Assembly (NCBI GenBank): GCA_001730085.1
Contig: MDLB01000105.1
Span: forward strand, 69 to 64,068
Direction: 5' to 3'
Length of the DNA stretch: 64,000 nt
Origin: PVC group bacterium (ex Bugula neritina AB1)
Lineage (GTDB): Bacteria > GCA-001730085
Of this stretch, positions 2,699-40,700 are shown piece by piece; position 1 is the stretch's first letter, and every line of letters begins with the position of its first letter. A program made the position numbers and the translations under genes. The notes beneath the pieces were generated by a model that saw only the letters and a program-made list of their open reading frames with translations, made no database searches and was not told the DNA's origin.

Positions 2699-4153
2699 TT
2701 AGGCACTGCGATAAAGCTCTCGCCAATTAATCCAGTTTTTAAAATCTTGTTCCTTAATTGTATCAAATCTGTAGCTATTAAAAATAGACGGGTCTCCCCA
2801 AACAAGCTTTTGCTCGCGTTCTAACCTCTCTAGATTAGACACCACACCCTCTATATCATCATGGGCATTTGCGACCTGTAAAAATTTTGCGTAATCTCCT
2901 TTCTGTTTAGGTGAAACTATCCTAAGCAATTCCCAATAGAGGATCCATTTAAGAAAAGGCTCATACCTTAAGATATACTCCGATATTTTCAGTTTGCATT
3001 TACCACCAGAAAAGTCTACAAAGGCCGGGGCACCAGCTGGGCTCCTCGCATTCCCTTCATGAAACCCGGACGTCAAATAAATAGTAATTTCTTTTTTCTT
3101 TGCCTTACGAAGGATTTCCTTAAAAGATGGCTCGGCAGAAAAATCTATAAAGATCTCCCCTATAGCTCTTCTAATCTCCTGTTCGCTACCTCTTCGCCAC
3201 TCTTTCGAGAATCTTTTTTCTAGTTCGACTCCTCCACGATTCATCGTCGCTTTTATACATTTACGCTCGTCAAAAGGATAAGACATGCGCCATTCTTTTC
3301 CACGCCATACAACAAATGGGCCACAATTATCAGGAAGCGTAGGAATTATTTCGTCCTTCCTTTTTTTTGCACTCTTCGTCTCAAGATCCTCTTTAATCTC
3401 TTGTTCTTCTGCTCTCTTTAAAGCCTCTGCCTCTTCCTTCCTCTTTAATCGCTCTTCCTCTAAAGCCTCTTCCGCTTTTTTTGCTCTCTCTTCCTCTTTA
3501 AAATCATCATTAAGAGACATTACGATCGTAGCAAAAGATTCCTCGAACAAACGTGCCTCTTCTTTCTGTCTGTTTAAAGTTTTCTTCGAATTAAAATAAT
3601 CCACATTTATATATACAGTCCTATTTCTTTTATCAATAGAATAAAAATCAAAATTTGCGCCTCGTACAAAAACATATGTTAATGAAATTTTCCTCATAGC
3701 ATGTGAACATGCTCTATATACTAAATCGTGTAAGTCTTTATAAGTTGCATCATCTCTATTAAAAGGTCTATTGATACCAAGCAGAGCCAAAACTCCTATA
3801 TTAGCTGCGTACTCATTATCATCAAATACTCCGAAGCTTCGCTCTATATTTGATAAGATAAACTTTTCAAATACACCACTAGAACCCTTTTTGAAGATCT
3901 TCATTTTCAGCAACTTATAGCTAAAACAACCATAAAACACAAACCGTTTATCACTACCACTTAGATTTATGGCTACACTCACATGTTCTACGCCGGGCGC
4001 ATATAAGTCAATAGCTGGGTATTTGTTTTGCGAATCAAAATACTTTTTAGAAAGATTCGATAGAGAGGAAACACCAAGAGAGTTGATATTTTTATCTGAA
4101 AAAAAATTAAAAAAACAAAAAGTTAAAACTGTTAAAAAAATAATTTTTTTCAT
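2699..4153 (-). CDS. Secreted hypothetical protein, about 484 aa, tandem paralog B.
   Basis: The ORF track extends this to 4165 from a TTG (MELSM...). The true start is the ATG at 4151..4153 (MKKIIFLTVLTF...), which has the same GGAGCTTTCT Shine-Dalgarno as paralog A. The 5' roughly 120 nt and the 3' roughly 60 nt are near-identical to paralog A. The centre is divergent and includes a charged EEER/KRKEE repeat-like segment at about 3360..3500. Confidence 0.8.
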   Translation of the reverse strand: MKKIIFLTVLTFCFFNFFSDKNINSLGVSSLSNLSKKYFDSQNKYPAIDLYAPGVEHVSVAINLSGSDKRFVFYGCFSYKLLKMKIFKKGSSGVFEKFILSNIERSFGVFDDNEYAANIGVLALLGINRPFNRDDATYKDLHDLVYRACSHAMRKISLTYVFVRGANFDFYSIDKRNRTVYINVDYFNSKKTLNRQKEEARLFEESFATIVMSLNDDFKEEERAKKAEEALEEERLKRKEEAEALKRAEEQEIKEDLETKSAKKRKDEIIPTLPDNCGPFVVWRGKEWRMSYPFDERKCIKATMNRGGVELEKRFSKEWRRGSEQEIRRAIGEIFIDFSAEPSFKEILRKAKKKEITIYLTSGFHEGNARSPAGAPAFVDFSGGKCKLKISEYILRYEPFLKWILYWELLRIVSPKQKGDYAKFLQVANAHDDIEGVVSNLERLEREQKLVWGDPSIFNSYRFDTIKEQDFKNWINWRELYRSA

Positions 4154-4261
4154 AGAAAGCTCCAAAAAATATTAAAATAAAATTAAAGTTTAAATATAAT
4201 TATTATATTAGTTTAAAATACTTATTTATAATAATATAAAAAAGATTATAATCATAAATAG
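4154..4261 (-). promoter_or_regulatory. Conserved 5' block of paralog B (promoter or 5' UTR).
   Basis: Aligns with 1942..2048. Confidence 0.4.
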
Positions 4262-4706: not shown

Positions 4707-7700
4707 TCAAACATTTTTAGATAATTTGATCATTGCTGAAAGATTTTTATTCAACAAGAGCTTCCTAGGACTTAAAACACCCGTCACACCTTCCACGTGA
4801 GAGAATCCACTCATCGCCTCTCGAAAAGGTAGAAAATGTTCGGGTTTAAGGAACCTTACATCTTTAAAAAATTCTACATCGAAGTTTTCTTCATCTCTCT
4901 GTTCATTTAACTTTTCTAAGACATAGGTAAAGCTTTCTCTAGACAAGCTCGTCTTCGTCAAACGATATAATAAAGTTTCTTCGGGAAGAAGATCTTGGAT
5001 CCTTTTATAAAACTCTTGGTCTGTTAACCCTCTATCTTCCAAGTTTCTCATTTCTAAAGTTACTCTATCTAAGGTATCTCTACCTATCCTTTTTTTATCT
5101 TGAATAAGAGTTTCTTTATAAAAATCTTTTTCGAAGTCAAAAAGATCTGATAAATCTTCAGCCCCTAAATCATTTTCAAGTGCTGACAAGGATAAGTCCC
5201 AAAGGTTGTGATCAAAAAGTTTGCTCAAAAACATTGCTGTTTTCAAAATATTAGCAGTCGAAGCTTCTGGATTAGTCTTTAGCTGATCTTTTATTTTTAG
5301 CCAATCCTCATCCGATAAAAGATCTTGTGCCTGCCATTTATCAAGATAACTTTCCAGACCCGACTCTAAAAAGGCTTCACTGATAGTCATTTTGACACGC
5401 TCATCTTCTACTGTAAAAACATAGGGTTCATCTTGCTGTGGAACAACTTCATAAGAAATATCTGATTTCTCACTCCATTGTTCAAGATTTATTCTATCTC
5501 TTTGATAGTTAACACTTGGATTAAGCAAAGACATTCGCACAGCGGCTTCCATCTCTTCAAAGCGATCAAAGAATATCTCATCATCTCTATATTCTTCCAT
5601 ATGAGGACTTTTTAAAATCTCCATAAACTTATCCACATACTCTTGCTGTTTATCCTTATTTTTACGGAGCTCTTTAGCCTCTTCAAGCTGTTTCACAAAC
5701 AGTGGGTCCATAGATGCCTTCTTTGCTAAAAGGGTATCTAATAATATTTCATCATTCTTATTTTTAGAATCAAGATACCCATCTTGGCGCATTTCTGACT
5801 CTTTAGAGAAAAGATTTCTAACCAAAGCTGTCGTTACTAAATCGGGTGCTGTTTGCTGTATTTGTCTTAAAGCGTTTAGGGCCGAAGCCTTCTTTTCAAA
5901 GTTCTCAACTTCCTTTGCTATTTTTAAAAGAAGATCCTTGGCCGCCAAAAGTTTTTCTCCATTCAGATCCTTTATATCCGTACCCAAAGCTTCTAAAATG
6001 CTTAATAACATCAAAATATAATCCTCATAGGAACCCATTTCGACATAACGGCTATCCCAAGATAGTCCAAAAGTCTGCATATCTTTCCGTTTCCTAAGGT
6101 ATTTTGTCATATCAGAAGATATACCTAATTCTTTTTGTAAGGCTTGCAAGTCACATCGTTTCACAGAGATAGCTTTCCCATTAACAATTCTTACAGAGTC
6201 AAATAAAACGTTATCCGTCAAAACATTTCCCCAATCCTTATCTTTTGACATAGGTGAGGTAGATCTTTTAACCAAAGAAGGTACAGCCTTTTCAAAAACT
6301 TCTTTAAACTCTTCGCTACGAAACTGTTGATCTCCCAAAAGGATTGATCTTTCTATTTGTTCGCTTTCTCCTCTCCTATAGCTCTCTAAAATTTCTACAA
6401 GTCTTTCTTGAGTAAAAATGGTTTCCATCGTCCCATTAGGATGCTCAACGATCAAAGGAGAACTCAAGCGATTCAAAGACCAAAGTTCAGCCAGATCATC
6501 TTCTTTCAAGCTTTCCTTAAAAAAGTCTTTTTTAAGGAAAGCCACATATTCGGGGTCTTTTTTCCTCTCCCCCTCTAGAGCAACCTCTTCTGTTGAAGAA
6601 CGCTCAAAAATCTCCGTATGCCTTAATAAAGCATCACTCGTAAATGGAGATTGAGGAGGATTCCCATTTGTGCTAAACAAGCTCTGAAGACTTTTTCTTT
6701 TTTCATCTTTATCCGAAAGGTTATTTTCTAAATCTTTTAAAACAGCGCGTATCGCCTTTTGCTCTATTTTTTTAAGTTTTAAATCGCTCTCTTCTATATC
6801 TTTAAAACTTTTTTGTATGATTTTTTCCTTCTCGCTAGCATCTTTCCCCATAATTCGTGAAAATAAAAACTTGCTTATCTGCTGAATATCATTATTCTTC
6901 TTGAGCTTTTCTATCTGTCTCTTTGGAAAAGAGCTAATACGTTCTAAAAATGTCTGGCTTTCCAAAGATTCTTTGCTCTTCAAGTCTCTCATTTTCTCTA
7001 GATCAAACATTTTAGCACCGTAGCTTTTGTGCAAATCATCTCTAGTGAAACTTTCTGATAAAGCATCATTCATTTCTTTAGCTGCAGAAGAAAGAGTTTT
7101 CGTCATCCCCGGAAACATCGTTTTTTCCTGAAGGTTTGTGAGCAGATCCCAATCCGATTTTTGGATATTCGTCGCAGAATAAAGAGCAATAAAGGCTCCC
7201 ATCATTTCTTCCTGTTTTTCAGGGTCGCTGATACCACTTAACAAAATAGCTTTTCGGATCATATCTATCGTCACATCTTTTTGATTAAAATTTCTCTTTT
7301 GCTCTTCCAGACTTTTAAAAACCCCTTGGGCTTCAAGTGAAGTATTTTTCTGAACCAATTCTAAGGCAAAGTCCTGTAAACTTTTATGGTCTTTATGCGT
7401 TTGGTGACATACATCCAGCCACTCCGAAACTTTCATCATAGAAGATATATCTTGCTTTAATCCCAAAGCCGATCCCTTGCTTAATAAATCTTGCACGCCT
7501 TGTAATAAGCTGCGATCATTTTCCCTTGCCAAGCGCACATCAACCATTGCTGCCAACATATTCGCACGAGACACGTCTACTTCTCCGTTTGAAAAACCCC
7601 CCAATTTTGTCAAAGCCATCATTGCATCTAGAGATAAATCTAACTTATTCTTTGTGAAAGCTGTTATCAAAGCCGCAGTCAAAAAGAATGGTTCAGATTT

Positions 7701-10700
7701 ACTTAAACTACTCTCAACTGCGTCTTTTTGGTCATCTTCCGCATAATCCCGAAGAATATTTTTCATAACACCCAAAAGCTTACTTTCATCCTTTTCTTCG
7801 ATAGCAGCTTCTAGCTCATGCAAAGCATTTTCAGCAGCATTTTCTCCCATATTTTTTAAAACATCCACCAAAGGTTTCATCTCTTTAAACTCCTCACGAG
7901 AAGTCAATTCCCCCATGAAAGCTACATTCAAATGCCCCATGCCGAACTCGCTCTTTTGTATACTTTTCTTGGGAGAAAAAAAGTTGAAGTTTTTGGCTGT
8001 TTTGATGAGATCATTCCCTCTGCCTTTCCCTAAAATACTTTTAGAGCCGGTTAAGTCATTATAAGATTTTTTTAAGTGAGCGGCCTGAGCATTGCTCAAA
8101 AGCCTTTCCGCTTGATAATTATGTCTACCCTCTACCATTTTGGGTAAATCTTGTTTAGGATGAACCATCGCATTTATAAGTTTACCCATTTCAAAAAGAC
8201 TTTGACTTCCAGATAAAATTCCCCCTTTGGGTGTTGGAACAGCGTTCTCAGCCGCAGCTCCAACTCTTCCTGTTATGATCACTTTTTTCGCGAGTCTTAT
8301 CTCTTCACGCAACGAGTGTAAATACTCTCTCAAGACAGGAAGATCTAACGGAGACAAGTTTTTCTTAATAAAAGACATCTGTTCAATCGCCGAATTATAA
8401 GCCTTTCTTAAACCTTCGATAGCTGTTTTTTGGTGTGACTTCAACTCAACATTTCCAGAATCATTCCTATTGAACTTCGCCAAAACCTTTCTCATCACAT
8501 AACGTTCTTTTTCTGACATTTGGGTATTAGACATCATTTTCTGCAAACTCTTTTTCGGATAATCAGATATCATACTTGTCAACGTGTTATATGTTGTTGA
8601 AAGAAGCTTTTGGCTCTCATTTTTTATAAGGTTCTCCCCAAAAGATCTTGACAACGGAGATTGATTCCCTTCGAGTGTTTTCAAGAATGTTTCTGGTAAA
8701 AGCATGAGGCGAGAGTGGTTATGATTCGCAAATTTACGGTCTCTCCCATAGGCCTGCCCAAAGTCAGAAAATGTGGTATCTTTTCCAACGAAATTCAAAT
8801 AGCTCACAGGGCTAGACTCAAGAGAACCTATGTCCCACCCAAATCTTAAAGATTTATTCGTCGCTATAAGCAATCTAGATAGGTCAAAATCTTTCAACAT
8901 TTCTATATCAATATTGGCTTCTTTCAAAAGAGCTAAGTCTTCGGGGTTCACTTTTTTATGTAATTTTTTGGCTTTCAAAAAGTCAACAATCGCTTCCACA
9001 ATCTTTTTGGAATCCACATTAGGGATCGTATTATTATTGATGATTTGATTAAAAGAACGACCTGAAGCTGTAGGGGGAGAGCTCACTAACTTGAACTCGC
9101 CTGTGTTGCTCGTATATTCTAGTTTTAAAAGCGAAGAGCCCGACCAAAGACTTTTTCCCACACCTATATCTTTCAAAGCATTTATTAGAGAATATTTTTG
9201 TTCCGCAAGACGCTTGATTTTGCTCTGTTGAACAGCAGAAGATGTGTACATATCCGGTTGCGTTGTAACATTCACACTCAAAAGCAACTGGAGCAACTGA
9301 GAAACACTCTCCTCATTCCAAAAGTCTTTCTTTCCTGTTTTTTCTTGAAGCATTTTTGTTAATGCACGTACAGATGCCTTTTGATTCTTATCCAACTCTT
9401 CTGCCTTTTGATTCTTATCCAACTCTTCAAAATTTTCTTTTTTGTTTGCTGATGCTTGTGATGCTTGTAAAAACGCATCCATATCTTTCAAAGATTTCTC
9501 CAAAAGAGCTTTGGAAGATGGATCTTTAAATTCAGGAAGAAGCTTTTTCACCTCCGAAAATTTAGAAAAGATAGCTTCTTCTCCCATGATCTCACTGTTT
9601 TTGATTTCGCCGGGAGTGAACGTGTCAGTCCTAGGCGTTATCATTTCAAAAAGCTTTTGAACTTCTGATAGGTTCTTAGATTTTAAATATGTTATGAATC
9701 CCTTTGACCAGTCTTTAAAAGAGATTATCTCTCCATCTGACCAGTTTTTATCCAAGCGATCGATTTCTTCTTGTTTTTTCTCGTACTTTTTCTTTAAGTC
9801 TTGTATTTGATCGAAGTTATTCTCTGCTGAATCATTCGTTAATTTTTGGATGTCTGCCTCAAGCTTATTCATCTCCTTTTGTATATCTCTTTTGAGTTTG
9901 TCTTTCAACTGAGAGCCAGGATAATTTTGATAAAAAGATGAGAGCTCTCGGTAAAGAGCCTTCCCACTAGGTCCATACATCTCTGGACCCATTGTTTTAA
10001 GATAGAAAGTGAATATCGAAATGTCTTGCCCAAAAAGCTTAGCCAAAGTCCCAAGGGCACTTCTGGATTCTGCCCCTAAAATAAGGTGGGCGATTTTTGA
10101 TACAGGTAGTGTTGTCCCTGTCATATAGAGAACATTTCCACCTCTCCTTTGGATTTCATCAATGATCCCTGTCACAGAAGACTGCAAAGAGTCGGGTGAG
10201 GTTCTCACAAGATCTAGCCTTTGTCCGTAAACTTTATCGACATCCATTTGGATGATCTTCTTGTAATAAGAGTCTTCATTTCTATGAACCGAAGATTTTT
10301 TCTGGTGCCTTCTTATATAACTTTCCACCCATTGACGAGCCTTAGCTCTAACAAAAATTTCATGCGCCGGATCTTGGGCTTCTTTCTTAGAAGAAAAGTC
10401 TAATTCTTTTTGGATAATATCCCTAACCTTTGGATCGGATTCACCTCCTCTTCTAAAGTAATCTTCCAAACTGTTTTGTTGTGTCGCACTTATAACAACC
10501 TCCATCGCTCTCATTTGCCAAACTCTTGGATTTGTTTCGGCGGCTTTCTCATTTTTCATTCGTTCTTTTGTTGCTAAATTTTGACCTTCACGAGGTTTTA
10601 TAACCGCTTCAAAGACCGCAGCCAAATATGGATCACTGTGCTGTTGATCAATGCTTGTTATATCTTCTCTGGCAGGTTTAACCATTGCTCTGTCTGCAAC

Positions 10701-13700
10701 CTCGTCAGAGTGAGAACTAATCTTGTCCCCTCTCGTTATGATCTCATAATTTTGCCCACGATTTTGAGACAAGACATTCGCCAAAGCCGTGAGTCCTTTT
10801 TGCGCACTCCTGTTGGCCTGTCCTCCAAAAAACTCGTAAAGATCATAAGCTTTTGTAGCAAATAACGTTCTCAAGTTTTTAAGTTTACCTAGAAAACCTT
10901 TCCCACCCGTATCAGCGTTTTTCGCAGAAACAAACTTATCCAAAGCTTTGGGACTCTTCAACTCCTTTAAACCAATGATATTCAAAATTTTCTTCGCCAC
11001 AGATGTTTGCCAAAAAGAGGATTTAAAAGATGTACCTAAAGCAGAAACCCCACCTGTTTCCATATACCTTTGGACAAACTGTTTAGAGAGAAAATCTCTC
11101 AAAATGATCGTCGACTCTCCATATTTTAATGCCGAGGTGAAGTTTTCTTTCGAAAAGTCATTTTTGCCAGGTGAATAGCTCAATTGACGTTGTAATGTTC
11201 CCTTCTTAGGATCTAGTTCTAAAAAGTTCTCTTTACCAAATCGAAGAGCTTCACCCTTTTGAAAAATCTGTATACGAACCGTGCCATTTTCGCCTTTTGA
11301 AAACTTAAACTCATACTCTGTGTTATCTGAGACAGATTTTTCTTTAAAGTTTTCACCTCCATTTTCTTCCTGTATCCGTATAAGCTCTTCTGCCATAGGG
11401 GTTTCCATTGCAGAAAAAAAGTTCCTGGCAACTCTTGCCCCGATTTTTGCTGATTTTGGCAAAGGATTTTCGGCTTTAAATCCAGATATCAAAGAAGGGA
11501 TATCCCCTATCATGTGAGCCTCATCCACTAACATGCTGGACTTTGTAAAAATAAGATCCGCGATTTTCGCCTCCAAAACACCCTTCCCTGTTTGTCTAGC
11601 CAAGTGAACCTGCTCCAAAGACATGGCGTCAGAAAAAACAATAAGACCTCCATTCTCTTGACCTTTTTCGATTTTTTTCAATGTTTGTCGCAGGTTAGGA
11701 CCATGTAAACTTTGTCCATCTAGTCGAACATAGGTAACAACCTCTCCCTTTGGCTTATTCGTCAATCCCGCTAAAAAATCATTCTGGTTCAAACTATCCA
11801 TGAAAGATTTCCCCTCCTGCGACATATCAGCTATCGCCTGATTCAGCTTCCCACTGTCGGCAAAAAAAGCGAGAGAAGTCTTCACTGAGTCACCAAAAAG
11901 TAAAGAACTGATCGCTGTAAAAATCGGTGAAATCGTCTTACTTTTCCCTATCCCTGTTACGGCATCTAAAAGATACGACTCTTTACCTAGGATCCTAAAA
12001 GTTTCTTTAAGTCCCGCGATCCTTGTCACAAAAGTGCCTTCTCCTCCATCACCTTTGTATTTATAGTGCTGTATAAAAGTATTAATGACCTCTAGCAAAA
12101 CTTCCACCATCGGCAATCTCTGCGTGTAAGATTCCTTGTTACCTTTATATTTTTTATCAAGAAATTTCAAATATTCCTTACGGACTGCAGAAAAGTTACT
12201 ACCCCCTACAAGAATGATTTGGTCTTCGCTGTCCTTTTTAAAAATAGATTGACCTTTCTCGTTTATAAGATTTTCTGCATTGTCTAAGAATTCAAAAAAA
12301 GAATGCGACACCTCTCGGGCAACCTTTTGAAAAGCTTGCCCACTTAAGCTCAACTTATCGACAACCGATCTCAACATGCGCGCTTGATCCAGAAAAGTTT
12401 TCCTTAAGACAGACTGTCCATCTAAGACCTCCTGTTCCGCCGATAAGGATGACTTTATTTTTGAATCGACATCACGGGCATAGGTGCTGCCCTTTTTACC
12501 CGGCTCTTCTAAAACAGATCCCTTTAATTCAATATCAATCTGACGGGTGATTTGGATCGCCATTTCTAAAGGGTTACCGTTTATCGTATCCAAAGATTTT
12601 TTGGCACTCTTTAAGCCTTTTAGATCTTGTTCCAACATTTGGATTTCTTCCTTTAAGGTCTCTATATCCTTTTTAGCTTTTTCAATAGCGTCTTTGGGCG
12701 TAGATTTACCTTCCATCGCTAACAAGCTATCTTCCATCTGTCCTAATTTTTCTTTGGAAGACTTAATCTTAGCCTGTTGAATGTTTAAAAATTTTTCTAT
12801 GAGTTTTTTAGATTTATCAATGTCTCCATTAAAATGGTTTGTAAGCTTTTCATCAAAATCACCCAGTTTTTTTTCTCGAGACTCTTCAAGGTTTTCCTGA
12901 TTTGACCTTTTTTTGAGTAGTTCAAAAGTTTCTTGAGAAACTTTTAGTTCCTTAAAAAAGCTTTCTTTGGTAATAGCTTTCAAAAAACCCTCAAAATTTG
13001 TACTATCCGATACCCATTTTTTCAAAGCCTCCCCACTATTACTCTTAATGATAGAATGTTTCAAAATAAGGACATCCAGTAAAAGCTTATTCCTTTCATA
13101 AAGTTGTGGATTCACTTTTTTATCTATATCGGCCGACGCTCCTTTGAAAATTTTGACATATAGGTTGTTATATAGTTTTTCTATTTCTTTATCATTCTTT
13201 TTACCAACATGCATTTCAATAAGGTCGAAAACTGTTTTAATGTTTGGAGAAAAATGTGTATTTTTTTCTCCATCCAAAATCTCGTCTATCTCTTTAACAT
13301 TATCTGTAACAAAAACGGTTTCTAAAATTGTTCGAATATCTTTCACCTTCCAACCCGACGCTAATAATTTTTGAAAAGCTCTCTCTATATTTTTCATCTC
13401 TTGAGGAAAGATTTTTTCCACATCTTTCATGTCTGGTTTAACTCCGGAAGCTTTTTGATAAGCCTTCCTCAAAAGATCCTTAGGTAAGGTAGAAAAATCA
13501 GCTTCAAGCAACTTTTCTGTCAAACTTTTTTTGAAACTGCTGCTAAAAGAAGAGTCCGTGGCACCAGCTATTTTTTGTAAAAAACCTTCCATAACTGCTT
13601 CAAAATCACCTAAGGCTTCAATGCCTTTCTCATTTTTTTGTTGCTCTTTAAGAGATTTTTTAGAACGAACACTCCTAAACAAGTCAGGTTCCTTAACCTT

Positions 13701-25700: not shown

Positions 25701-28700
25701 TTTAATATCTGACAAATGATTTTTCCAAATATTTTCATACTCTTCAGAAAAAAGTTCATTCCCATACTCATCAAACTGAGCATCTTTTCTAAAGGTCGAT
25801 TTTTTCACAATAGCTCCCGTATTATCTATCGTACTTTTGTTCAAATGAGACATAATGATTTTCCCATTCAGATCATAAAGAAGATTAAGCTTTTTTAAGG
25901 AATTTATCTCATAAGGTTTATTCGGAGAGTCTGGTGTAAAATTCATCACTGTATCAAAAGTAAGTAAATCTCTATTATTGATATCCTTGACCGTCTGAAG
26001 CCTATGGCGTACTTCTTTGGAAAACTCACCTCCCCCTAGATAGGTCTCTTTCGTAGATGTGAACTCTCCCGCATTCATATGACTATCAAAACTGTAGTTT
26101 TCTACGGTTTCTCTAGATCTTAATAGACTTTTTTCAAAAACCTTAGTGCGCACTGCTCCATCATTTATATCTCCCCAATCGCTATCCAAAGCAAGCTCTT
26201 TATAGGTCAAATGAACCTGTTTCGATATCAACGCTTCTTCCATATCATAATCAATGTTTGTAACTGTATAATTAACAGTAGGCACTCCCAAGGTTTTTGA
26301 AGCACGTATAGAAGACTTTTCTTTACGCGCTTCATTATAATCCGTATAACTCACAAGGTTTTTATAAACCTCCTGTGCTTGCTGACCATCTCTTACTAAA
26401 TGCCTTTCTTTCAAAGAAAAACGTTTCAGACCATGCCAATTCTTACTGGGAATATTTTCATCATAAAAAGAATAATAACTATTAAGTGTTCTGGATAAAG
26501 AATAGTTATCCGGATCAGCAACTTTATCACCGGACATCTCTGATTCTTTAATAACAAAGTCTTTTTCAATAGCCTCTACAAGTCGACTACCACGAAATAT
26601 ACTTTCTTTGATTTTTTTGGATTGTAACTGGTAATCACTATCTCCCTCACCTAAACCTATTGGCTTAGAATTAACAAATAGCTCCGAAACTGTTTCTAGA
26701 GACCGCCCTCTCGGATCAAAAATGTTCATGTTGTCCACTTGATAATATCTGCGATTTTGATCTATGATTTTGCTATTCATCTCTTGATACATCGCAGAGT
26801 TGTCGAGATATGTTCCTCGTTCAGGATCAATCAAAATCAACGACTTGAGCCTATCTTCCATATTATACATATACGTATCAACACGTTTCTGAGTGATCCA
26901 GCCTGTACCTTGCTGACGTTTATATTCGACTTTATTCGTCATCCGGTCTAACTCAAACTCAGAACCCATGCTATCCTTTACATGAAGAGGTTCTGAAAAG
27001 TCTATCGTTTGATAAAAACTTATTTTTCGATTGAATTGGTCATATACAATATCATGTTCCAATTGGACGATCTCCGAATAAGAGTTTTGACGAGAAAGGT
27101 CAATATAACTATCTTTCTGTTTCCGTGTTTTTGTTATTTTAGCGCTTTCTTTCACGCGTCCAAAAGAATCATATTTGTATTGATTTTCCTCGATACGTTT
27201 AAGTTTATTGGTGAAAATCTCCCTCTGAGCAACGGACTTTTTAGAACCATCATAGGTACGCACTTCATCTTTCAAAACATAGTTTCTAAAGTAAGCACCA
27301 AGATATGCTTTTTCCAAAAATTTTCTTTCCACAAGATCCTTTTTTCCCTCTTCCATGCTAGGTCGATAGACATTAACAGCTTCTGATATTTTTAAACCAT
27401 TGGCGTTTTTGTTTATTATCGCTTCTTCATGTGAAACCTTGATCATTAAGTCATCATAACGTACTCTCATTTCCATTTGAGCAGTATCATCTGAACCATA
27501 TGCGAAAAACTTTGTTTGATTTCTTCCTTTGAACTCAACACACATTGTTGCCTTTAAGGCATTTTCCAAGGACTCATTCATCCCTTCTATCTGAATGAAA
27601 GCATCTCTCAAATCTTGAAAATTATTATAAGTCCACGCATATTTACCTTCACCTTTCGGAATAATCATGCCTGTATCTATCAATTTATCCAAAAGAGATT
27701 GATCATAATCTTTGGCTAAAAGCTCTCCATGTGAATGTATTGAGGTCTTTCTCATGAAAGCTTGGTCCAAAGACCTTACAGCAAAACTATCAAGACTCTG
27801 TTCACTTAAACGTCCTGTTTCGTAATACTTATAACTTCCTTTTTCAACTTTAGAAATGGTACCGCTTTCATCAGTAACAACCTTAAGGTTTTCTATTTTT
27901 CTAAAGTTTTCATAGGTATTTTTAATTTCTGTTATTTTTTGTAAGTTATTAGAAACAATCCCTACTTCTGGTGACCACTCCATCAAATCTTCATAATGAG
28001 TTACCCCTTTAAAGCTAGCATTTATGGTATGTCCATTCAAAGTGGTACTCATTTTTGAAAGATTATTGCTGTATGTGAAATATTTTTCTTCTGTATGATC
28101 TTCGTTATAACTTTTCAATGTTAAAGTTTCATTCAATCCATTGCCTTCCTCATAAACAACTTCTTTCATGATTTTGGCATTGGCTTCGGGGTCTTTGCTG
28201 CTATAACCTTTCCAGGATCTTTTGATATGTCTATGCGTCCCATCTTGAATGGCATCTTTACTTTGATAGATCAAGTTGTCAACCAGATCATATTTTCTCT
28301 CTATCTCTTCAACCAAGGTAGAATCTATCGAACTCGGTGGATTTTTGCTTTTGGAAATGACTTTTTCAAAAGTCAAACGATTGTATTGATCATAAGTTTT
28401 AAAAGATGTTGAGGACTTTCTAAGCCATGTTCCGGGTCCTGCCCAAGTGACTCTTCCTGTGATACCTTTAAAGCGCTTAGCCTCATCATATTTACCTTCT
28501 AAAAAGATATCATCAACAACTGTCCCATTTTTTTTGAGCCCCACTCTATTATCTTCTCTCAAATAATACGTATACTCTCCACTATTGATCATATGCCCAT
28601 TGATCAAAATAGGGTCTTCTCCAGGGGCTCTTTCTCTGATTTTACCTCTTGTTAAAATACTTTGATGTCCCCAAGAAAAAACATTCGCAAAAGATTTTAA

Positions 28701-31700
28701 CTCACCATCAACCAAGCGTTCTACTATTTTCAAGCCAACATTTTTGATCTCTTCTTGTTTATGGTTCTTGATACCATATTCTCCCGAGGGCTTAAGAAAA
28801 AAACTATACAGTCCCGTATTCAACGAATGTTCCGTATTAACATTTAAAAAGAAATTCTCATAACCTTCAGCCTTTATACTACCTAATAAACCACCTTTAA
28901 AAATTTCAATTGGAAGGTCATAGTGATACAGTATTTTACCTGTTGGAGCTAAAGAGCCATTGATCATTTCTCTCTCAAGAGTAACTCCCGGGATCTTTTG
29001 GCCATTAGAGTCTAATAAAACCATTTCGTCATTTTCATCAACAAAAAAAATAGAAGAGGAGAGGTCTATCGATTGTCTGCCTGGTCCAACGATAAAAGAT
29101 TTATTCTCCTCACTCTTTTTCATAAAACCATCCAAGTGCCCTTCCAAGTATTCACTAATATTTAAGTCAACAGGTGCCCCTTCTGGCCCATAAGGTTCAA
29201 ATTGATATCTTTGCAAGTAACCCGCATTATCTTGACTTAAACGTATGCTTTCTTCCTCATCACCTTCAAAGCTTGAAACACCATCAAAATCTAGAGCTTG
29301 CTTCCTTACCCATGTTTCTATATCTTCTTTAAGCTCCTCACCGTATTCATCGTAGGTGAATCGTGATATTTCTTTTCTAGAGACAGAAGAGTTTTGAATA
29401 ATACTCTTTCTTCTACGTTTCACTTTATCCGAAGCTCCTCCTGCAAAATGCTCAACCTCAGCGATTTCTTTACGTAAAAAATTCTTGTAGTCACTATCGT
29501 TATAAATATTTTCTTCAATTTTTTTCTCGTTTAAGAAAGCATCATACGTTGATATAACACTTTTCCATGTATCTATTTCATTAGGCGGGTTAACTGTTTT
29601 GGTTTTTATATGAATTTTTTTCTCTTTAGCCATCAGATCTGGGGTATAAGAAATATAATCAGTCGTCGTGACTCTCTCGAAGCTCTCTTGCCTCAAGCGT
29701 CTAATACTCCCGTTTTCATTGTAGCTTTTGATCATCAAAGAAAAAGGTTTTCCTTTTCCAGCAATAACCTTCCCATCCCTCGTTCTTCTGTGCTCTTGTC
29801 GGACTTCTCTCCTATGTTTATCATAGGTATAGCTAACCGTATCTTCTTCTAAAAGAGCTGTCACAATGTCTGGCCTCTCAATAGTTTCTTTTTCTAAAAG
29901 ACTTTCATCAAAAACAAAATCGTCAATGTTTTCTTCAATCAAAAGTCCTCTATCATAAATCGCACGTATCGTCGAAAGCCTAGGTTTCTCTCCTTCTCCT
30001 CTCATTGCTGTGATGATATTAGTAGCTTTCCCTTGACCGTTAAAATCTTTATTCCATATGACTTTCTCAGCCTTTAATAGAAAAGGTTCTTCATTAAGAG
30101 TTGTTTCTTTTTTAATATGTTGCTTTTCAACTCGACCTCTATGATCATATTTATAAGATTCCATTTGAAGGTGAGGCATATCTGTCAAACGCTCACCTCT
30201 ATATGTCCTTTTTTCTAAGGAATCACCAAAAATATTATACGAGTCAAAAAAAGTTTTACTAAAAATTTTACCTCTATCAGGGTAGTATATACTCCTAACT
30301 TCTTCTTTCAACCTCCCGGTCGCATCATGAAAAAGATTCTCTGTAACCTCTTCTTTATAGGCTACATCTGTCTGAATTGGGGAATAGCTTTTGGTATCTT
30401 TAGACGCCACAAAGTGGCTCTCTTTGTCGAAGCGATACGTATTCGTGATGATCACTTTTTCTTCTGGAACGTCTTTCTCTCCTGTCAAACCATTTTTAGG
30501 ATAATACCGTTTTTCTGTTTGAAAAACGCGTCCAAATCTATCTTGTGTTATTATTTCTCTTTCTTTGCTTAAACGATCACCTGTATCTGTCAAAGACTCT
30601 GTAACTTTTTCTTGGACTTCACCATTATCATAGTAAGATTCAAAATCAACGCGTTTTTGATCCCATAAATATAGATCCTTTTCTAAACCTGTATCCGTAT
30701 AGTAAGTTTTACGCATTTCCTGTGTCGCAAAACCCTTCTGACCTATAAAAGTTTCCATATCATATGTTTTATCAACAACCTCAACAAAAGATATCTCTCT
30801 TCCTCGATCTCTTTGGGTTGTACGTACAGATGTTTCCAGGTGATTCTGATCATATGAGCGAATATTTTCCACTTCCGAAGATAAAAATCCAGCAATGTAT
30901 GTCCCGTCTGATTGATCAAGTTGAGCTTCTTCGTAGATTTTTAAATTGTCTTCCAGAAGTAACCAACCTTTATCGGAATATTTTGAACGCGTTATTTCTG
31001 CTTTCGAAGTCGAACCTAAACCACTGCTCCAATTTGTTGTTTGCCAAGCATTACCATGAACATCTAGGTTATGTCTCCAAACATGTCTATCTATAACTAT
31101 TGATGAACCTGAAAAAGTGGAACGGTTTTTCTCAACAATCACCCTTTCAGAATGATCATATGTTTTGGAAGACTCAACTATCGTCGAAACGTTTTGATGA
31201 TCCTCTCCATAATAAGATTTTGTGCTATTTAAAAGATTATCAAAGTGATCATAAGTGTTATATCTCTCTTGATGTATCAACCGCCAATAGGTTTCTGGCT
31301 TTTGTAAATCCAGACTTTCATTCATTCTCATCCTGAATTTTTTATCAACCAATTCTTCGACTTTACGACCCGTCACATCATCATAAACATACGAAATCTT
31401 CTCAACAGACTCCGTTTGCTCATCTTTTTCTAAAAGATTTGTGACCGTTTTCGTTGCTGATTCAACAAAATGCTCTAAAAAAATACCGTATTTAAAGTCG
31501 TAAACAGTGACCTCTTTTTGATAAGGAGAGTCATCGGCATCATTTGAAAATCTAGCATAATGGTGAATAGTTTTGGATTTTTTTCGATCAAACGCATCAT
31601 ACCTGATATCTTCTTGATATTTTTCAATACGGTTTTGAAAACCATTTTGATCATTATAGCGTTCAACCATTTTACTTATCACACGGTTATTATCATCATG

Positions 31701-34700
31701 AAGAAGGTTTGAAATGGTTCTTGTTTCTTTCAATTCTTTAGGCGAATTTTCATCCAACTGAAAATAGATTTTATCAGTTGTTCTTAAAGCAAGACCCTTT
31801 GACCTTAAAAGATCATTGGTATAATCTTTATAAGAGTCTGTAACATTTTTGATAATTTGAATCCTTGACTTCAAAGATGCCAAAACCTTTTTTAGTGTAA
31901 GAAACCTTTGATCCGAAGGATTCATCTGTATCAAATCTACGAGATCATTGATCATTTCTGAAAGATTTTTTGCATTAGAGATATCATTGAAACTGACAAT
32001 ACCCGTGTCACTCGCTAATTGCTTAAGAAGGTCTTGAGTATCAGAGAAAGATATATTTGACTGGCTTACATCTTGCGCAAAAGCTTTCACAAGAAGATCC
32101 TTTTCTAAGATCGTCGCTTTAGCTGCAACAACAGCTTCATAAAGAGAGCGATACGTGTATTTTCTTTCTGCTAATTTTCGCAACTCATCAATAACATCGT
32201 CAATGGTACCGTTTGCAGCATCAATCACTGGTTGCAAATCATTGTTTTCAGTTAATCTCATGTTTTCTGCTATCAATAAGTTTTGAATATCTTTCAAGTT
32301 ATTCGCTTGCACCAAGTCTCTCGATATGTTTGAAAGTAACGGCGTATACTCTATTGTTCTTCTAGAAGTTTCAAGGTTCCAAGCATTATAAGCAAGATCT
32401 CCATTATCTTTACGAAAGCTAATATGACTTTTACTTTTCATAAGATCTTTCTTCAGTTGGATGTTGCGATAATCATTAGTATCATCAATAATCGAAGACA
32501 ACGAACCGTAAACTTCTATGAACTCATCTGTTTTTAGACCTGTTTCAAGATCATAGTTAAACTTTTCTTCTGTGATCGTCTTTTCTGTTCCGTGTCCAGA
32601 ACCTTCAGAAATCTTATGAAGAGCTTTACCTCGAATATCAAAACCTAATGTCCATTTCTTTTCCGAAACAATATTTGTCCCCTCTTGAGCAAGAGAGCCT
32701 TCATATGTTACACGTTGATCCTTGTTATACCTGTAAGTCGTTAAGGCGGTAGAAACTTTTGACTTATCAAAGTTTGAACGGTCAATCTTATTCGTCAAAA
32801 CATTACCAAACTGGTCAAATGTCAATTTTTGAACTTCTTGTCTATTAAATAAAAAATCATTTTTATTCAAATATTCTTCGGTACTTCTACGTTGATACGT
32901 CTCAGTTTTTTCATAAACATTTTGTAACTGAGCGTTATATCTCCATGACTTAGTTATTTCTCTTTTTTTATAGCCAGTATAAGGAGAAGCCCCTTTTTCA
33001 TGAAAGAAGTTATAAGCATCTAAGTCATTAGCCATCTCTCTAAACTCAAAAGATGTTTCTGTTTCTTTGCTCAGATTTCGATTTTTGCTCTCATAAAGGT
33101 ACTCATTCTTCTTTATGATAGACTCAACCGGACTTTCTTCTTCCAAACTATGATTCCCATATCTATCTGTAAAAATCAATCTCTCTCGATCATATTTATC
33201 ATAAAAAATATGATCTCTCGCTCTTGAAAGATAATACTTATTAGTAGCTAGAGGATTAGCTTTTTGATTATCATCACGAAGAATAAAACGACTTTGAGTT
33301 CTATCCGTCACTCGTCCGTAATCATCGTATGTATTAAATAATGAAATCGAGCTATCCCTATATATCTCTCTACCTGAACCAGGATCCCATACAAAGTGAT
33401 CAACCATCTCTTCACTCATATGACCCAAAGCTCCTGAGTCCAAACGGGAGTTATAATAAAATTTATGAGCATAGTCTATCCCCAAAACCGTCGAGGTATT
33501 AACGTCACCCCCTCCATATTTTGTTGTTTTTCTAGAGACTTCTCTGTCCCAATCATCATAAAGGACGTCTGAAATAAGGTCTCTTTTTTGAATAAGACCG
33601 GAAACGTCGGATATTTTGACATTCTTATCTCTAATGTTAAGTTCTCTTCCTTTTATGTTAACTTTTTGTCCATAATGAACACTTTCTTCCTGAATCAGTC
33701 GATTACCTCCTTGTGAATAGTCATAAGATCTCTCGATTGTTTTCAGGCTTCCTATCGATCCATTACCAGAGGTATACTCCAGCATTTTTTCGACATTCCC
33801 ACCTCTATCATAGGATTCCATCCATTCAACTTTCACAGACACCCTACTATCTCGCGATTCTCCCCATTTCGTTGTCTGTATTTGTTTAGAGATTTGCCCA
33901 TTTTCATTCCTAAAAGAGTGGATCTGATCGATTTGATCTCCCTCTTTTTTTGTATAAATTTCTCGACGATCCAAAGCATCAAATTTCAAAACACGAGATA
34001 CTGTTTCTGTCTCAAAATAGGTTTCCGAGTTAGCAGTATTATTCATAAGGATATTTTTTTCTTGTTTTCTTCTTTGTCTTTCTACCCTTTCAACCTCTCT
34101 TTGATACTCATCGTGCTTCAAAGAAATATCAAGCTTCATGATCATATTGCCTTGATTAAACCCTTCGTTATTTTTAGAGTTTTTCCAAGTGTAGTGTATC
34201 TCCTCTTTCTTTTGAAAGAGATCATTTTCTAAGCCTTTATATTTATGGTCTTTATAGTTAATAACAACATACCTAAAACCCATATCATCTGAGCCATTCT
34301 TATAAAATACCTTTTTCTTTTCCGACATCTTTCTACCAAAAACATCTCGATCAATGTCATAGATACGCTCTTTACTCAAGCGCTTACCAGAGAAGCTAAG
34401 AGACTCAGAGGTAACACCAACTTCCAAGCCTTTTTCATCATAGACATAATCTGAATAGACCTGTTGCCCTTGTGGTTGATAAGAAAGCCCTATGATCGAA
34501 GTAAAATCTTCACTTTCTTTATAAGTAGCATATGCTTTCGAATCTTCAATGATTGCTCTCGTGTGTATTTTCTTTGTAAGTTTTCCTGAATCCAAGCTTC
34601 TAGCTTCATCATTTTGATACTCAAAAATATCTGTATTCTTGGATAAAGCACCCTCTTTGAATTGATATGAAACTTGTTCGATAGTTCTACCTGCCAGGTC

Positions 34701-37700
34701 TTTTTCCTCTTTCAAAATCTGACGACTTTCCCACTCCCCTCTTTGAATAATATGTCCAAAATCAGAGATTTTCGACCTTCTCTCGTTTCTATCAAAATAT
34801 TTATTAAAAGTTTTCCAAATCAAATCAAAATCTTCTGCCGTGACTTTTTGTCCAAGTTTTAAATAAGCCTCTTCTTTAAACATCTTCTTGAGACCATCTT
34901 TCAAAAGGTTCTTATTCGACATGCTCCAAGAAACCGTTTCATCTCTTTCTTGAATAAGGTTATATTTTTTAAGGTTTTGATAAAGACCTGTCGGTAAGGT
35001 ATCAAAGACTTTTTTATAAATAATATTTTGGGTTTTGTCGGTATTCCAAACAGTTTTCTTTGGATCACTTTGATCACTCCAAAGAGATAACACTTCTTGA
35101 TAAGTATCATAATCATTTGCTTTCCAAATAAAATGATCAGAACCATCTTCTTCAAGAAGACCTTCTTGTATCCATGGGGACATATCCCAAGAAGATAAGT
35201 CCGAAGCTAACAGTCGAAAGGGATTATTCGCAACAAGAGTGTTCCCTCCGAAAGTTGTGATATCTTGAACTTTAGCTCTATTGAAAGAGTCAAACTCTAA
35301 AACCTTTGTTTCTTTTACCTTTCTCTTCGACCCCATTCCCTCGGAGATATCAACCGTGCGATAAATACGATCCATATGATCATATTCATAAAAACTCTCC
35401 AATGTCTGTAAGGTTACTAATTCTCCACTCTTAACCTCAATGGCTTTTCTCTTCACTTTTTCATGTATCTTAAAATTATAGGCATTGTATCTGATATTTT
35501 TTTCTTCTAAAGAAATGGCATTCTCTTTATGGGTTGTAAAAATTTTGTTTAAGGATAAGAAAGATTCATAAATGGTCGAGTAAACTTCTTTTTCATTCCT
35601 TAAACGATTCAAAAACCCAACCATATTACGCATATCATTTTGAGCTAACATTTCTTGATAAGCCTCTTCCTCTAACTCAGCTTCTTTAAGGATGTTTTTA
35701 GCTTCAATAAAGTTTTCTGCTAGCGAAAGCTCTTTAAAAACTCTATTCAATCTATCATTGACTAAATCTTCATTAAGCTTAAAAGCTCTTAGTGCCAAAT
35801 AAATAGACTCATACTCTTTACGGTCTAAACGCAAGTTATTCAAAAAATTTAAAAGACTATCCAGATCATTCATCGCCATAACAGAAATCAAATCAGGATC
35901 TTTTTGAAGGTTACGGAATCTTAATAAAATATCTTTGATTTCTGTAAAACTTTCACTTTGCAAGATTTTTCTAGCAAAAGCTTTATATCTAGCAATATCT
36001 TCAAGAGATGGATCGTAGGTATAAATATGACTTGTGACTGGCTGATTCAAATGGTCAAAATCTGTATGAACTGTTTTTTGATGACTCACAAGATTACCTC
36101 TAAAAAAACCTTGATTTAAATCAAAGTAAGAGTCCTGTAAATCCTCTGGCCGTGGTCTATAGACTTTCTGAACTTCTTCCACAAGCCTATTAGACATAAA
36201 AGCGTCATCATATTTCTTTTCGAAAACATGCTTTTCCCAGACGTTATCATATTTCTTGATAACTTCTTCTCGTGTTTCTTCTCTATTAAAATTATCATAC
36301 GTCAACCTTATTTTTTTAGCTTCTATCTCTTTCCACGTAGATGTTGCTGCCTCAAATACCTTTTGGCTTACCTCTTTTTCTACCACTTGATCATGCTCAT
36401 CATAAGATAAGAACTTTGACTCTTCTCGTTGCTTCAAAATCCAAGATCCGGAACTTTTCTCCCAGCCATATTCATCTATTTGCTTAGAAGTGAATCGATT
36501 TAAAGAGTCATATTCATTGGTTGTAACCCGCCTATTATGCTTCGACCACGAAGATAACGTGGAATCATAATGCAAAACATCCAAAGTTTCTTCGTGAACC
36601 AACTCATTGGGGTCTGAGTCTGTCTTATAAACATTTTTTTGGATCAATCGACGGCGCTCTGTATTCATTCGAGAAACATCATTTTCTGTATTTTTTTCAT
36701 ATTCTATGGTTAAAACTTCTGTAGCTCTACCTAGATTGTCAAAGGTATATCTTTTTCGAGCTTTAGATCTATCCACAGGTAAGCCTAAAACTTCAGATAT
36801 GACCTGTCCTTCCCATTGACTTTCAATATCAGCAACAACTGCATCCTGAACGTTCATTTTAGAAACAATAGCCTCTTTGACAACATCGAAAAGACTTATA
36901 CCCAAGTGATTTATAAGAGAGTTTGCAGGTAAACCCCAAAATCCCCTTAAAAAATTAGAAAATGTTGAAATCACCATCGTTTTAAAGGACTGTCCGTCTA
37001 TAAAGCCTCGAACCCAATTATAAAAACCCTTTTTAAAAGCTTCAAAAAGTTTGGGAAGTCCAATTTTTCTTTCACGATGGGTCAAAGTGTCTTGGCTTGC
37101 ACGTGATGTTACGTCGTACACTTGATGATATAAACCATCAGTATCTCTATCATTTTTTTGTAAAATGCGTAACCTTCTAAGTAGTTCTTCTTGCATATCA
37201 TCTGCTGTTATAAATTGCTTACCGGAAACGTTCTCTCCTGAGCGAAGTTGTAAAACACTATCAAAAATTTCTTCCCCATATTTGGTTGTAACAATAGAGT
37301 GAGATAAAGCTTGGCCCATCGTGTTATAAATATAATCATCATACTCTTCAAGGGAAACTCTGCTCCCATACATATCAAACTTTGAAGTCACTTTATGCGT
37401 TGTTTTTTCGAATAAGTTATATCTAAAATCAAAGTCGGATGAAGCATCTATCAAGGTTTTGTCATAAATCCTATTTCCATCTTCATCCAAAATGATCGAC
37501 CCATTTTCATATGTTCGCATAGTAAAGTTATATAGATATTGCTCTCTTCCTTTAAGAAGTCCTGTTTTTTCATTATAAATATTAGCGACTTCTTCTTCCT
37601 TTTGAAGACCAAAAATCCTATAAGCTTTGATATTATCATCATAAAAAAAGTCTTCTCCGGTTTGTGTCACTCTTCCCGATTGACGACCACTAACCGCATA

Positions 37701-40700
37701 GGTATAGTTATGAATAATAGCTCTCTTGAGTATCTTTTGATCTTCATGAAAAAATTTCCATTCACGATTACTCAAAAGTTGCCCTAATTCCGAATAAACA
37801 TGATCAAAAGTTTTTATCTCTTTACGTGACAAATAGTCTATCTGATGATTTGTCTCTACTTTCAAATTTTCATCATATGTCAATATTTTTCTGGAATCTT
37901 TCGTTTTTGTGAAGTTTTGAAAAAGTGCCTGTTCATCAATTTGATATGTATCCTCAGTCATTTTTGGTAACTGATTCTCGCTTAAAAAAAGAACACCATC
38001 TTTTTGATAACTTTTTTCATAAAGATCTGTAACCATTCCACGTGAGTCAAATTCACGAAACTCTTTCAATGTTATCTCTGTTTTTCCTACAAGATGAATT
38101 TTTTCATAAAGTTCAATTAAGTAAGAAAACTTTTCGAACGGATCCACAATCCAAGAGCCATCACCTCTAAGCGTATGTATATTGTAAGCTTGCATAGTAG
38201 GAACTAACTCTGCAGCTAAATCCTTTAGCTCCATCAAGTGAGCGTTCTTATTTTTAATCATCTCTTCAGAGGGTAAAAGGGGTTTATTTAACAAAATTTT
38301 GTTAGCAACTTCAGCTTCCTCAATGCTAAAAACATCATTTTGATGAAGCTCTGACAATAGCAGTTTGTACCTTGTCAAGCTGTTTAAAAGATCAGGGTTT
38401 TCTGAAGTGAAGCGTTTAAGATTCATCAAAAAGTTTGTATTCAGTTTCTGCCTAATAGGGAATGCTTTCGGGTTAGAGAGTGAAGAAAAATCGAGCTTTT
38501 CAAGGATTTGATTAAGAGAGATCTCCTCGCGTATAACAAACCCATGATCAACCTGATCTTTTATGTTATAAAGATACGGGCCAAAAAGCCCTTTGATAAA
38601 CTTGTTCTTATCTACGACTGTTAAACCTTTAAAGCTATCCATCCACGCATTGAAAGCAGCTTTAACACCTTGGATTTCTGGATAATTTTGCCCTGTCAAA
38701 ATCCCTCTGATTTTTCTCAAATCACTTTTATTCAAATCTGAAAGACTTTTTAATATATTTTGCAAATTTTTTAACTTTGAAGCAAAATAGTCCAAGGCTT
38801 CTTGCTTAGGCTTCGAGTAATCGTTATCATATAAAAAATATTTTTCTAAAACCTCACGAGACATCGAAGAGTCCCAATTTAAAGAAACCTCTTCTCCATC
38901 ATCTTTTTTACCAAGATTAAAACCTTCAGGCAATAACTCTGTTTCATAAACTTGAGCATAGCTTCCCTCATCTAGCACCACTTCATACTCTTTAGCTTTT
39001 CTTTTGAAATTATAATTGAAAGTGTTTTTACTATACTGCAAAGTTTCCCATAAACGGTTTTCAATATTATCAGCTAGATTAAGCTTAGCCTTAAACTCTT
39101 CCTCTGTGTCATCAATAGCATCCTCACTCCATGTGCTATGAGGTATCCCTTCTATATAATAGTCAATCAATCCGACAGATAATAAGTCTCTTTTAGGATC
39201 AACCCCAAACGGTAACTCATAAGAAGAAGTGCTCAGATCCAAGTTGATCGATTTTTTATGATAATCATAGATCACCTCTTTCACTTTTTTCTGAGAAAAA
39301 GCATAGGCGTCTTCATCGTCCGCAAAACGATATTTTGACCGGCGAGACATATCCCATAAAACCTGTCCATCATCATCATATTTGCGTTCATTTTCTATTT
39401 TTATCTCATCTTTATAATATTGACCTCCATCAAATGAAACATCTTTGATCTGACCCCAACGGTCATACTGTCTAGAAAGAGATACAGAAGAAGTTATAAG
39501 ACCTGTGTTATCTCCTCCTGTCTTCTTTTCATCATCATAGGTATCATAATGAAACGCATAAAAATAAACTTTTCCTGTGAGACCGATAATATTCCCTCGA
39601 TCATCTTGTGTTGTTTCCAAAAAGATATCATTCAGTATATTCCCTTGCGCATCTTTGATACCGATTTTATTATCGGGACGAAGAAAATAACTCATCTGTC
39701 CATTATTTAAAACATGCTTACCAATTCTCACAAAATCTTCCGGTAAGCTTGCCGAAGAGATTATTCCTCCATCAATATCAAAAGGAGCATCAAATGAAAG
39801 TGAAACAGGATTGTTATTTTGATCTTGAAGCTCTTTCAAGTTAACCCTAAATTCATCTTCTCTTATATTAACTATTGTTTTTCCATTTTTATCATATTCG
39901 TACCTTCTCGATATATCAAAAATTTTGTTTGCCTTCGCGTAATCTGTTTTTTTGACTTTTATGAATTTTTTACCATAAGGATCATACCCTCTTTCAAAAC
40001 TGGCAAGAAGTTGCCCATTATGATCATACGCTCCTTCATTGATTTGATATCTATCGTAAAAAAGAGCCCTTTCATCAAAAGCTCTCCCTGTTCCTAAAGC
40101 TTTTTCACTTTCCGGGTCCGTCAAAAACTCTGGAAGATCGAAATCAATACGACTTTTATCAAAAGCTAACCAAATAACATCTTCTGTCCTAGCCCCATTG
40201 TTAATACGATCTTCACGTTTTTTAATCAAGCGTCCTTGATCATCGTATCCCATGTCCCATGTGTAACGGAGAGAAACGTTATTAGCTGAATCATAAGTTT
40301 TCACATTTTCTGATATCCTTTGCCCTAAGCGGTTATATGCTATAGAAGAATATTCTGTTTGACTAATAAGATCACCTTGATCAATAAAGTCGTGATAAGA
40401 GAGTAATTGTCCATTTCGGTTATAAACCATTTTATCTCTACGGAAAGACTTCGAAACCCCGCCCTCTTTTTCTTCTTTATCTAAAAAGATATTTTGTCCA
40501 AGATCGTTATATCTCATATCCTTAACAAAAGTTGAAAAAGGTTTATCTTCACTGTTATAGCCGTCTTCAATGTAGCTCCTTAAACGCCCCCACAAATCAT
40601 ACTTAGTATCTTTACGTCGCGTCCGGATTTTAATATTTGGAGCAGCACTACTCGTGATTTGATCAAAATACCCAACCATTTGGTTCGCGACATTGTAATG

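Follow-up and report, generated by a model that had tools for sequence, protein, structure and literature searches.

A very divergent, probably functional DEAH-type ATPase motor behind the transmembrane cluster of a giant protein from a Bugula neritina-associated PVC group bacterium

In a 64,000-nucleotide stretch of DNA from PVC group bacterium (ex Bugula neritina AB1) (GenBank assembly GCA_001730085.1, contig MDLB01000105.1; the whole stretch is hereafter called the window), a single open reading frame (ORF) on the minus strand (4707..59468) encodes a protein of 18,253 amino acids (aa). We propose that residues ~15815-16925 of this protein probably form a very divergent, two-lobed ATPase motor of the DEAH type within helicase superfamily 2 (SF2), and that this motor is likely to be catalytically competent. 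A preliminary description of the window had noted four SF2 motifs in canonical order at 8700-11960. This was borne out, as all four lie in the one minus-strand ORF in the order claimed, and the motif map together with homologues places the whole SF2-like module at 8694..12026 (r15815-16925, where r denotes residues of the giant protein; all features of this protein are on the minus strand). The combination of a DEAH-type NTPase with a surface protein, which had been thought undescribed, has a precedent in the giant proteins of West-Roberts et al. 2023 (bioRxiv 10.1101/2023.11.21.568195), where transmembrane (TM) anchors are followed by divergent SecA-DEAD domains. Built-in SF2/SecA-type motors of giant bacterial proteins are thus already known, and what is new here is the extremely divergent DEAH/ResIII-like motor.

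Motif architecture of the module

The N-terminal part of lobe 1, which is RecA1-like (r15815-16000; 11469..12026), carries motifs I, Ia and II. Motif I, the Walker A element LDAVTGIGKSKT (r15834-15845; 11934..11969), follows the SF2 pattern AxTGxGK[ST] and not the classical GxxxxGK[ST], which is absent, and its A, T, G, G, K and T are invariant in all six sequences compared, namely the window protein and five homologues. The Walker B element of motif II, MLVDEAH (r15979-15985; 11514..11534), likewise has D, E and H invariant in 6/6 and follows motif I at the canonical spacing of 142 aa. Between the two lies the motif Ia-like LAFFADSG (r15866-15873; 11850..11873), which was assigned by position only and in which F80 of the alignment is invariant and F(A/S/M)D is conserved.

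Beyond motif II the layout departs from that of a plain helicase core, as motifs II and III are 469 aa apart (canonically ~30) and motifs III and VI 455 aa apart (canonically ~170-200), gaps far too long for such a core. They accommodate two atypical insertions, one of about 430 aa between motifs II and III and another of ~300 aa in lobe 2. Insertion 1 (r16001-16430; 10179..11468) is conserved in position across all members, opens with a conserved DxPSLIxG and a small β-sheet according to the alignment and the AlphaFold model, and contains the conserved block VKPAREDITSIDQQHSDPYLAAVFEAV (10569..10682). Motif III, VLYMTGT (r16446-16452; 10113..10133), is modelled as a strand followed by a loop and appears as M[TS][GA]T in 5/5 sequences that reach this point. 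The start of lobe 2 together with insertion 2 (r16471-16850; 8919..10058) is helical and rich in coiled coils, with low model confidence.

Lobe 2 ends in a motif V-like element, LLIATNKSLRFGWDI (r16866-16880; 8829..8873), with a strand modelled at LLIAT and the G and D of GWD invariant in 5/5, and in motif VI, FGQAYGRDRK (r16903-16912; 8733..8762), whose Q, G, R and R are also invariant in 5/5. The GWD sits 26 aa before motif VI, which is the usual DEAD-box spacing between motifs V and VI. The strand-like SRLMLL (8697..8714) follows motif VI, and a C-terminal tail without recognisable domain (r16926-18253; 4710..8693) completes the protein. Candidate catalytic residues are K15842, D15982/E15983 and R16909/R16911. 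A second G.GK[ST] match, GVGKS at r16771, is not conserved in homologues and was set aside as a chance occurrence.

A small family with invariant catalytic positions

Among 1.84 billion representative proteins, searched exhaustively with HMMER, only five relatives were recovered (E 7e-109 to 3e-11; 28-37% identity), of which one derives from a Bugula neritina PVC-group bacterium, two from one groundwater-type metagenome-assembled genome and two from ENA assemblies. No relative was found in a contig scan of GTDB species representatives or, among the 600 stretches listed, in a metagenome contig scan. Motifs I and II are kept in 5/5 homologues. Within the called proteins, motif III is kept in 4/5 and motif VI in 3/5; a further motif VI is found for homologue P0005 on a contig continuation that carries RFGWD and QAQGRNR, the break being due to frameshifts on a long-read contig.

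In the main alignment (n=6, window plus five homologues at 25-35% identity), 11/11 invariant columns map to motifs I, Ia and II (A47, T49, G50, G52, K53, T56, P59, F80, D193, E194 and H196). In the C-terminal alignment (n=5), 7/9 invariant columns belong to the stretch from the motif V-like GxD to QxxGRxR, comprising the G and D of GxD, one glycine between the motifs, and the Q, G, R and R of motif VI. With respect to the motifs whose conservation was to be checked, motif Ia is therefore represented by the invariant F in FFAD and motif V by the invariant GxD of LLIATNKSLRFGWDI; the part of this check concerning motif IV did not succeed.

The surroundings of the module are also shared. TM segments precede it in P0004, P0002 and P0005; P0004 aligns both at r12441-13218, the start of the TM cluster, and at r15786-16004 in lobe 1; P0001 is colinear with r15360-17840; and the C-terminal tail is colinear with P0001 and P0002. 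As judged from these alignments, the TM cluster, the motor and the ~1,300-aa tail are a conserved cassette in a tiny family of very long proteins.

Two members merit separate comment. P0001 (OED36045.1, 2,898 aa), the closest homologue, is a hypothetical protein of bin AB1_div with a GC content of 34.7%, close to the composition of the window; it has a signal-like hydrophobic N-terminus (residues 1-30) and no further TM segment by hydropathy scan, and may either be a C-terminal fragment produced by a gene-calling error or represent the cassette in free-standing form. The contig of P0005 (ENA ctg147967l, 1-24581) bears 12 consecutive same-strand genes without Pfam matches, and its ATPase module is split across three frames (9896-14578, 14529-14900 and 14939-16915). 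Frameshift errors of long-read sequencing have probably split a single giant gene into this run.

Homology and fold of the two lobes

Lobe 1 of 6/6 members matches the Pfam family ResIII over profile positions 22-139, which correspond to the stretch from Walker A to DEAH. At the Pfam cut-off of 22.5 bits, P0004 scores above it (28.8 bits, E 1.3e-6) and P0002 lies 0.2 bits under it (22.3 bits), followed by P0005 (14.8 bits), the window protein (14.4 bits), P0003 (14.1 bits) and P0001 (13.0 bits). Weaker matches were to Pfam DEAD, the NCBIfam Cas3 core, PADLOC type IV DinG (best E 7e-5) and PADLOC Cas3, all of them SF2 helicases. Direct Pfam and PDB sequence searches with the window module alone gave only noise, and a profile of the family alignment found nothing relevant among PDB sequences.

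An AlphaFold2 model from the six-sequence alignment reached a mean predicted local distance difference test score (pLDDT) of 52.8 overall and of 70-84 in r15850-16090, where strands alternate with helices. The proposed Foldseek comparison gave a divided result, in that no match was significant at E<=1e-3 and the highest-probability matches were DEAD-box domains (0.72-0.80). Taken together, the profile matches and conserved motifs identify lobe 1 as an SF2-homologous, RecA-like P-loop lobe. For lobe 2 a RecA fold is predicted, on the grounds that residues of motifs V and VI are invariant and canonically spaced.

Since the giant protein is so long, we asked how readily such motifs arise by chance. 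A G.GK[ST] followed 80-250 aa on by DE.[HD] occurred in 6.5% of 2,000 shuffles of the giant protein, and the same pair with a Q..GR 200-1000 aa further in 0.35%, so that the motifs alone make a modest case. It is conservation that, at the level of sequence, settles the module as more than chance, because the motif set is kept in five homologues with invariant columns on the catalytic motifs. The earlier assignment of an SF2 DEAH-type NTPase is accordingly upheld by the five homologues, the invariant catalytic columns and the ResIII matches. We regard it as very improbable that the motifs merely co-occur in a very long protein, or that they are the remnant of a dead ATPase that now serves only as a scaffold. 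Such a view could draw on the frequency of the Walker A and DExH/D pair in shuffles of an 18-kaa protein, on the window sequence having no significant Pfam or PDB sequence match, and on a lobe 2 that could not be modelled. However, the motifs stand in the same order in the homologues with invariant columns concentrated on catalytic residues, ResIII exceeds its cut-off in P0004, and the complete motif set is rare among shuffles. The Walker lysine, the DE pair and the two arginines of motif VI are, moreover, all retained, which speaks against a dead enzyme.

Membrane context and proposed mechanism

Upstream of the module lies a TM cluster of at least 11 hydrophobic segments separated by long K/E-rich loops (r12785-15225; 13794..21116). 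The preliminary description had positioned the module downstream of TM clusters, in agreement with hydrophobic segments that are confined to r12785-15225 with none after. The final TM element, a hairpin, has basic residues to either side (GKGKGG and KMKK). After r15209 the maximum 19-residue Kyte-Doolittle mean is 1.26, and the ~3,000 aa following the last hairpin are non-hydrophobic. With such flanks, the positive-inside rule makes it probable that the ATPase module is cytoplasmic and so has access to ATP.

Based on this layout, we propose a mechanism in which the module would sit on the cytoplasmic side directly behind its cluster of at least 11 TM segments. Lobe 1 would be a RecA-like P-loop domain with motifs I, Ia and II, from which the chain would leave for the ~430-aa insertion and return for motif III; lobe 2 would contain the second, ~300-aa helical insertion and end in motifs V (RFGWD) and VI (QxxGRxR). 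ATP would be bound and hydrolysed between both lobes, and lobe closure would most likely be converted into movement of a polymer, the presumed substrate, or into conformational work at the conduit formed by the protein's own TM cluster. The motor would probably correspond to the divergent SecA-DEAD modules that follow the TM anchors in giant proteins of Omnitrophota. Two roles had been suggested for the module, a 'cargo' domain and an energy-coupling module, and the latter is the more plausible of the two. A cargo role is unlikely given the predicted position on the cytoplasmic side of the last TM hairpin and the membership of the module in a colinear conserved cassette.

Several results weigh against this proposal. 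With regard to fold, Foldseek of the full model against the PDB returned zero matches at E<=1e-3, lobe 2 has no Helicase_C or other Pfam match in any member, and the AlphaFold model of r16700-16995 (4 sequences) reached a pLDDT of 41.9 and was left out of the fold search. Within lobe 2 no motif IV could be identified, and the second arginine of motif VI comes one residue early (GRxR, not GRxxR). The topology was derived from a Kyte-Doolittle scan and flanking charges only. As for a kinship with SecA, PF07517 and PF01043 were absent in 6/6 members in searches to E<=1-10, the family HMMER profile scored -2.2 against E. coli SecA, inside the range of SecA shuffles, and a comparison by hhalign with an alignment of 81 SecA sequences yielded a probability of about 1%; 80 proteobacterial SecA genes had been collected for this SecA set, which is only moderately diverse. 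Finally, a C-terminal motor made 15,000 residues after the N-terminus could not export its own N-terminal part co-translationally. Self-export would consequently have to be post-translational or in trans, and secretion of other substrates or mechanical operation of a surface structure is at least as likely.

SecA, ResIII and the identity of the motor

The same setting might instead be explained by a SecA-derived protein translocase consisting of NBD1, a hugely expanded preprotein-binding insertion and NBD2, which would have a common origin with the SecA_DEAD modules of Omnitrophota giant proteins and push a polypeptide (the protein itself, one in trans or an accessory protein) through the TM conduit or SecYEG. 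The SecA preprotein-binding domain sits between motifs II and III, and the large insertion of the window module occupies this very position, which among SF2 enzymes is, to our knowledge, characteristic of SecA; insertion 1 nevertheless has no sequence match to that domain. Local likenesses to E. coli SecA include DxPSLIxG against RTPLIISG just past motif II, xMTGTx against GMTGTA, IATN...GWDI against IATNMAGRGTDI, and SDPYLAAVFEA against SDGLHQAVEA. These were, however, found by eye and are partly unconserved, IATN occurring in the window sequence only. With E. coli SecA alone, hhalign aligned only Walker A. No Pfam match to scaffold or wing domains was obtained in the tail, and the sole hhalign alignment touching the SecA scaffold was non-significant and non-colinear.

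The published giant proteins share the order of TM anchors followed by a SecA-like domain and also lack scaffold and wing domains (10.1101/2023.11.21.568195), which would accord with SecA descent. Yet the PF07517/PF01043, HMMER and hhalign tests were all negative, hidden Markov model (HMM) scores put the lobe closer to ResIII, DEAD, Cas3 and DinG, and Walker B reads DEAH rather than the DEVD of SecA. We therefore judge a SecA-derived translocase to be unlikely, while still giving it some weight. As there is no statistical support for SecA and the sequence is DEAH/ResIII-like, we filed the module as an SF2 motor in a SecA-like setting; by its sequence characters, the motor is DEAH/ResIII-like and not recognisably SecA.

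Compared with SecA itself (NBD1-PPXD-NBD2; E. coli, PDB 3bxz and 2fsf), the proposed SF2 motor is similar in its domain-sized II-III insertion, in its MTGT at motif III and in that it would act at the cytoplasmic membrane face. It differs in showing no significant sequence or profile similarity, in having DEAH where SecA has DEVD, in having no detected HSD, HWD or C-terminal linker, and in being covalently fused to its own TM cluster.

The sequence matches could also be taken at face value, the module then being a membrane-tethered ResIII/DExH translocase or helicase for nucleic acids, like ComFA or motors of the restriction or Cas3 type, that would act on DNA or RNA at the membrane by moving or remodelling it. 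ResIII (28.8 bits), DEAD, Cas3 core and type IV DinG are indeed the best sequence matches, and motif II is in the DEAH form, but the matched region, motifs I to II, is confined to the generic ATP-binding lobe. Moreover, no nucleic-acid-binding accessory domain, nuclease or methylase was detected in the ORF or its neighbours, the host appears to be a surface protein of which 12,700 aa are extracellular, and the precedent of other giant proteins favours secretion-type motors. A nucleic-acid motor consequently seems improbable to us. A role in a defence system was rejected, as PADLOC gave only generic SF2 lobes (DinG and Cas3; E>=7e-5) and no partner genes.

With the N-terminal domain of ResIII/DExH SF2 enzymes (PF04851; type I/III restriction motors, Cas3 and DinG-like proteins), the window module shares its best HMM match, over motifs I-II, together with the DEAH box and a motif I of the AxTGxGKS form. 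Unlike these enzymes, it has no Helicase_C lobe detectable by sequence, is membrane-anchored, and is without nuclease, methylase or nucleic-acid-binding partners. In ResIII/DExH enzymes, motif III follows motif II after about 25-30 aa, where the window module has its ~430-aa insertion.

The closest parallel is with giant proteins of Omnitrophota, which we compared by their published description. Omnitrophota and some actinobacterial giant proteins host divergent SecA-DEAD modules, and RHS-like β-helices as well (10.1101/2023.11.21.568195), and a PF07517 architecture cluster has been described among long Omnitrophota proteins (2026 preprint 10.64898/2026.06.07.730766). As in Omnitrophota, the host of the window module is a giant, mostly unannotatable protein of a PVC-related lineage with RHS/YD-like extracellular material and TM anchors near the C-terminus that are followed by an SF2-type ATPase (here r12785-15225 and then r15815-16925). 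The modules themselves have in common an insertion after motif II and a fast-evolving sequence, and no Pfam match to SecA scaffold or wing domains, which the Omnitrophota modules lack, was obtained here. However, the Omnitrophota modules are detected by SecA_DEAD (PF07517) and the SecA preprotein-binding model, whereas the window module is detected by neither, carries DEAH, has ResIII as its best match and contains far larger insertions (about 430 and 300 aa).

Host protein and gene neighbourhood

The 18,253-aa ORF has zero Pfam matches at E<=0.01 along its full length, and with 7 cysteines (0.04% of residues) it is poor in this amino acid. A Kyte-Doolittle scan predicts an N-terminal hydrophobic signal or anchor segment at r10-28 (59385..59441), and the ~12,700 aa between this segment and the TM cluster are enriched in a YD-like motif. 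The motif [YF][DN]..G.{3,5}[YF] occurs 34 times in the giant ORF against 2.9 +/- 1.7 in shuffles, almost always within r1-8000 (window ~35500-59468). The preliminary description had termed the host a YD-repeat protein, and this label is borne out as a motif enrichment only (34 against 2.9 expected), the RHS repeat profile PF05593 finding no match in the 18,253 aa (Pfam, E<=0.01).

Short perfect or near-perfect tandem duplications occur in the giant ORF at 15615-15755, 16299-16460 and 9375-9428, with MDGTIPKISKILPNN x2, MDELSLRN x2, a 25-aa near-repeat LNPEIQRL..KDLSSKIDRM and EELDKNQKA x2 as duplicated units. The last of these, a perfect duplication at 9375..9428, falls inside the second insertion of the ATPase. 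These duplications suggest recent slippage or expansion in linker regions.

Just downstream of the giant gene lie two paralogous genes on the same strand (418-1941 and 2699-4165, minus strand), which encode proteins of 507 and 488 aa with 57% identity over 449 aa and near-identical signal-like N-termini. Neither has a Pfam match, and an accessory role or one as secreted partners is conceivable. On the other side of the giant gene, the upstream 4.5 kb (window 59469-64000) have 28% GC and contain only short ORFs (<=158 aa). GC content is highest, at 40.2%, in positions 10001-12000, which encode lobe 1, and ranges from 27 to 38% elsewhere. No tRNA or Rfam element was found across the window.

Implications

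Giant bacterial proteins are almost wholly unannotated, and it is still not understood how cells export, anchor and operate chains of 10,000 to 80,000 residues. The window adds a lineage in which an 18,253-aa, Pfam-invisible protein has retained, directly after its TM cluster, an SF2 motor whose catalytic residues are intact. The DEAH/ResIII character of the motor leaves the question of origin between one ancient SecA offshoot and repeated recruitment. It is conceivable, though in our estimation rather doubtful, that the motor is no SecA descendant and instead represents an independent DExH/ResIII recruitment that was fused to its own multi-TM conduit and to a 12,700-aa YD-like extracellular part. 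If true, this single polypeptide would amount to a self-contained device for ATP-driven translocation or injection, of a kind that has yet to be characterised, and the motors of giant proteins would have arisen more than once. The finding strengthens the case that a built-in cytoplasmic ATPase may be a general, selected feature of giant surface proteins.

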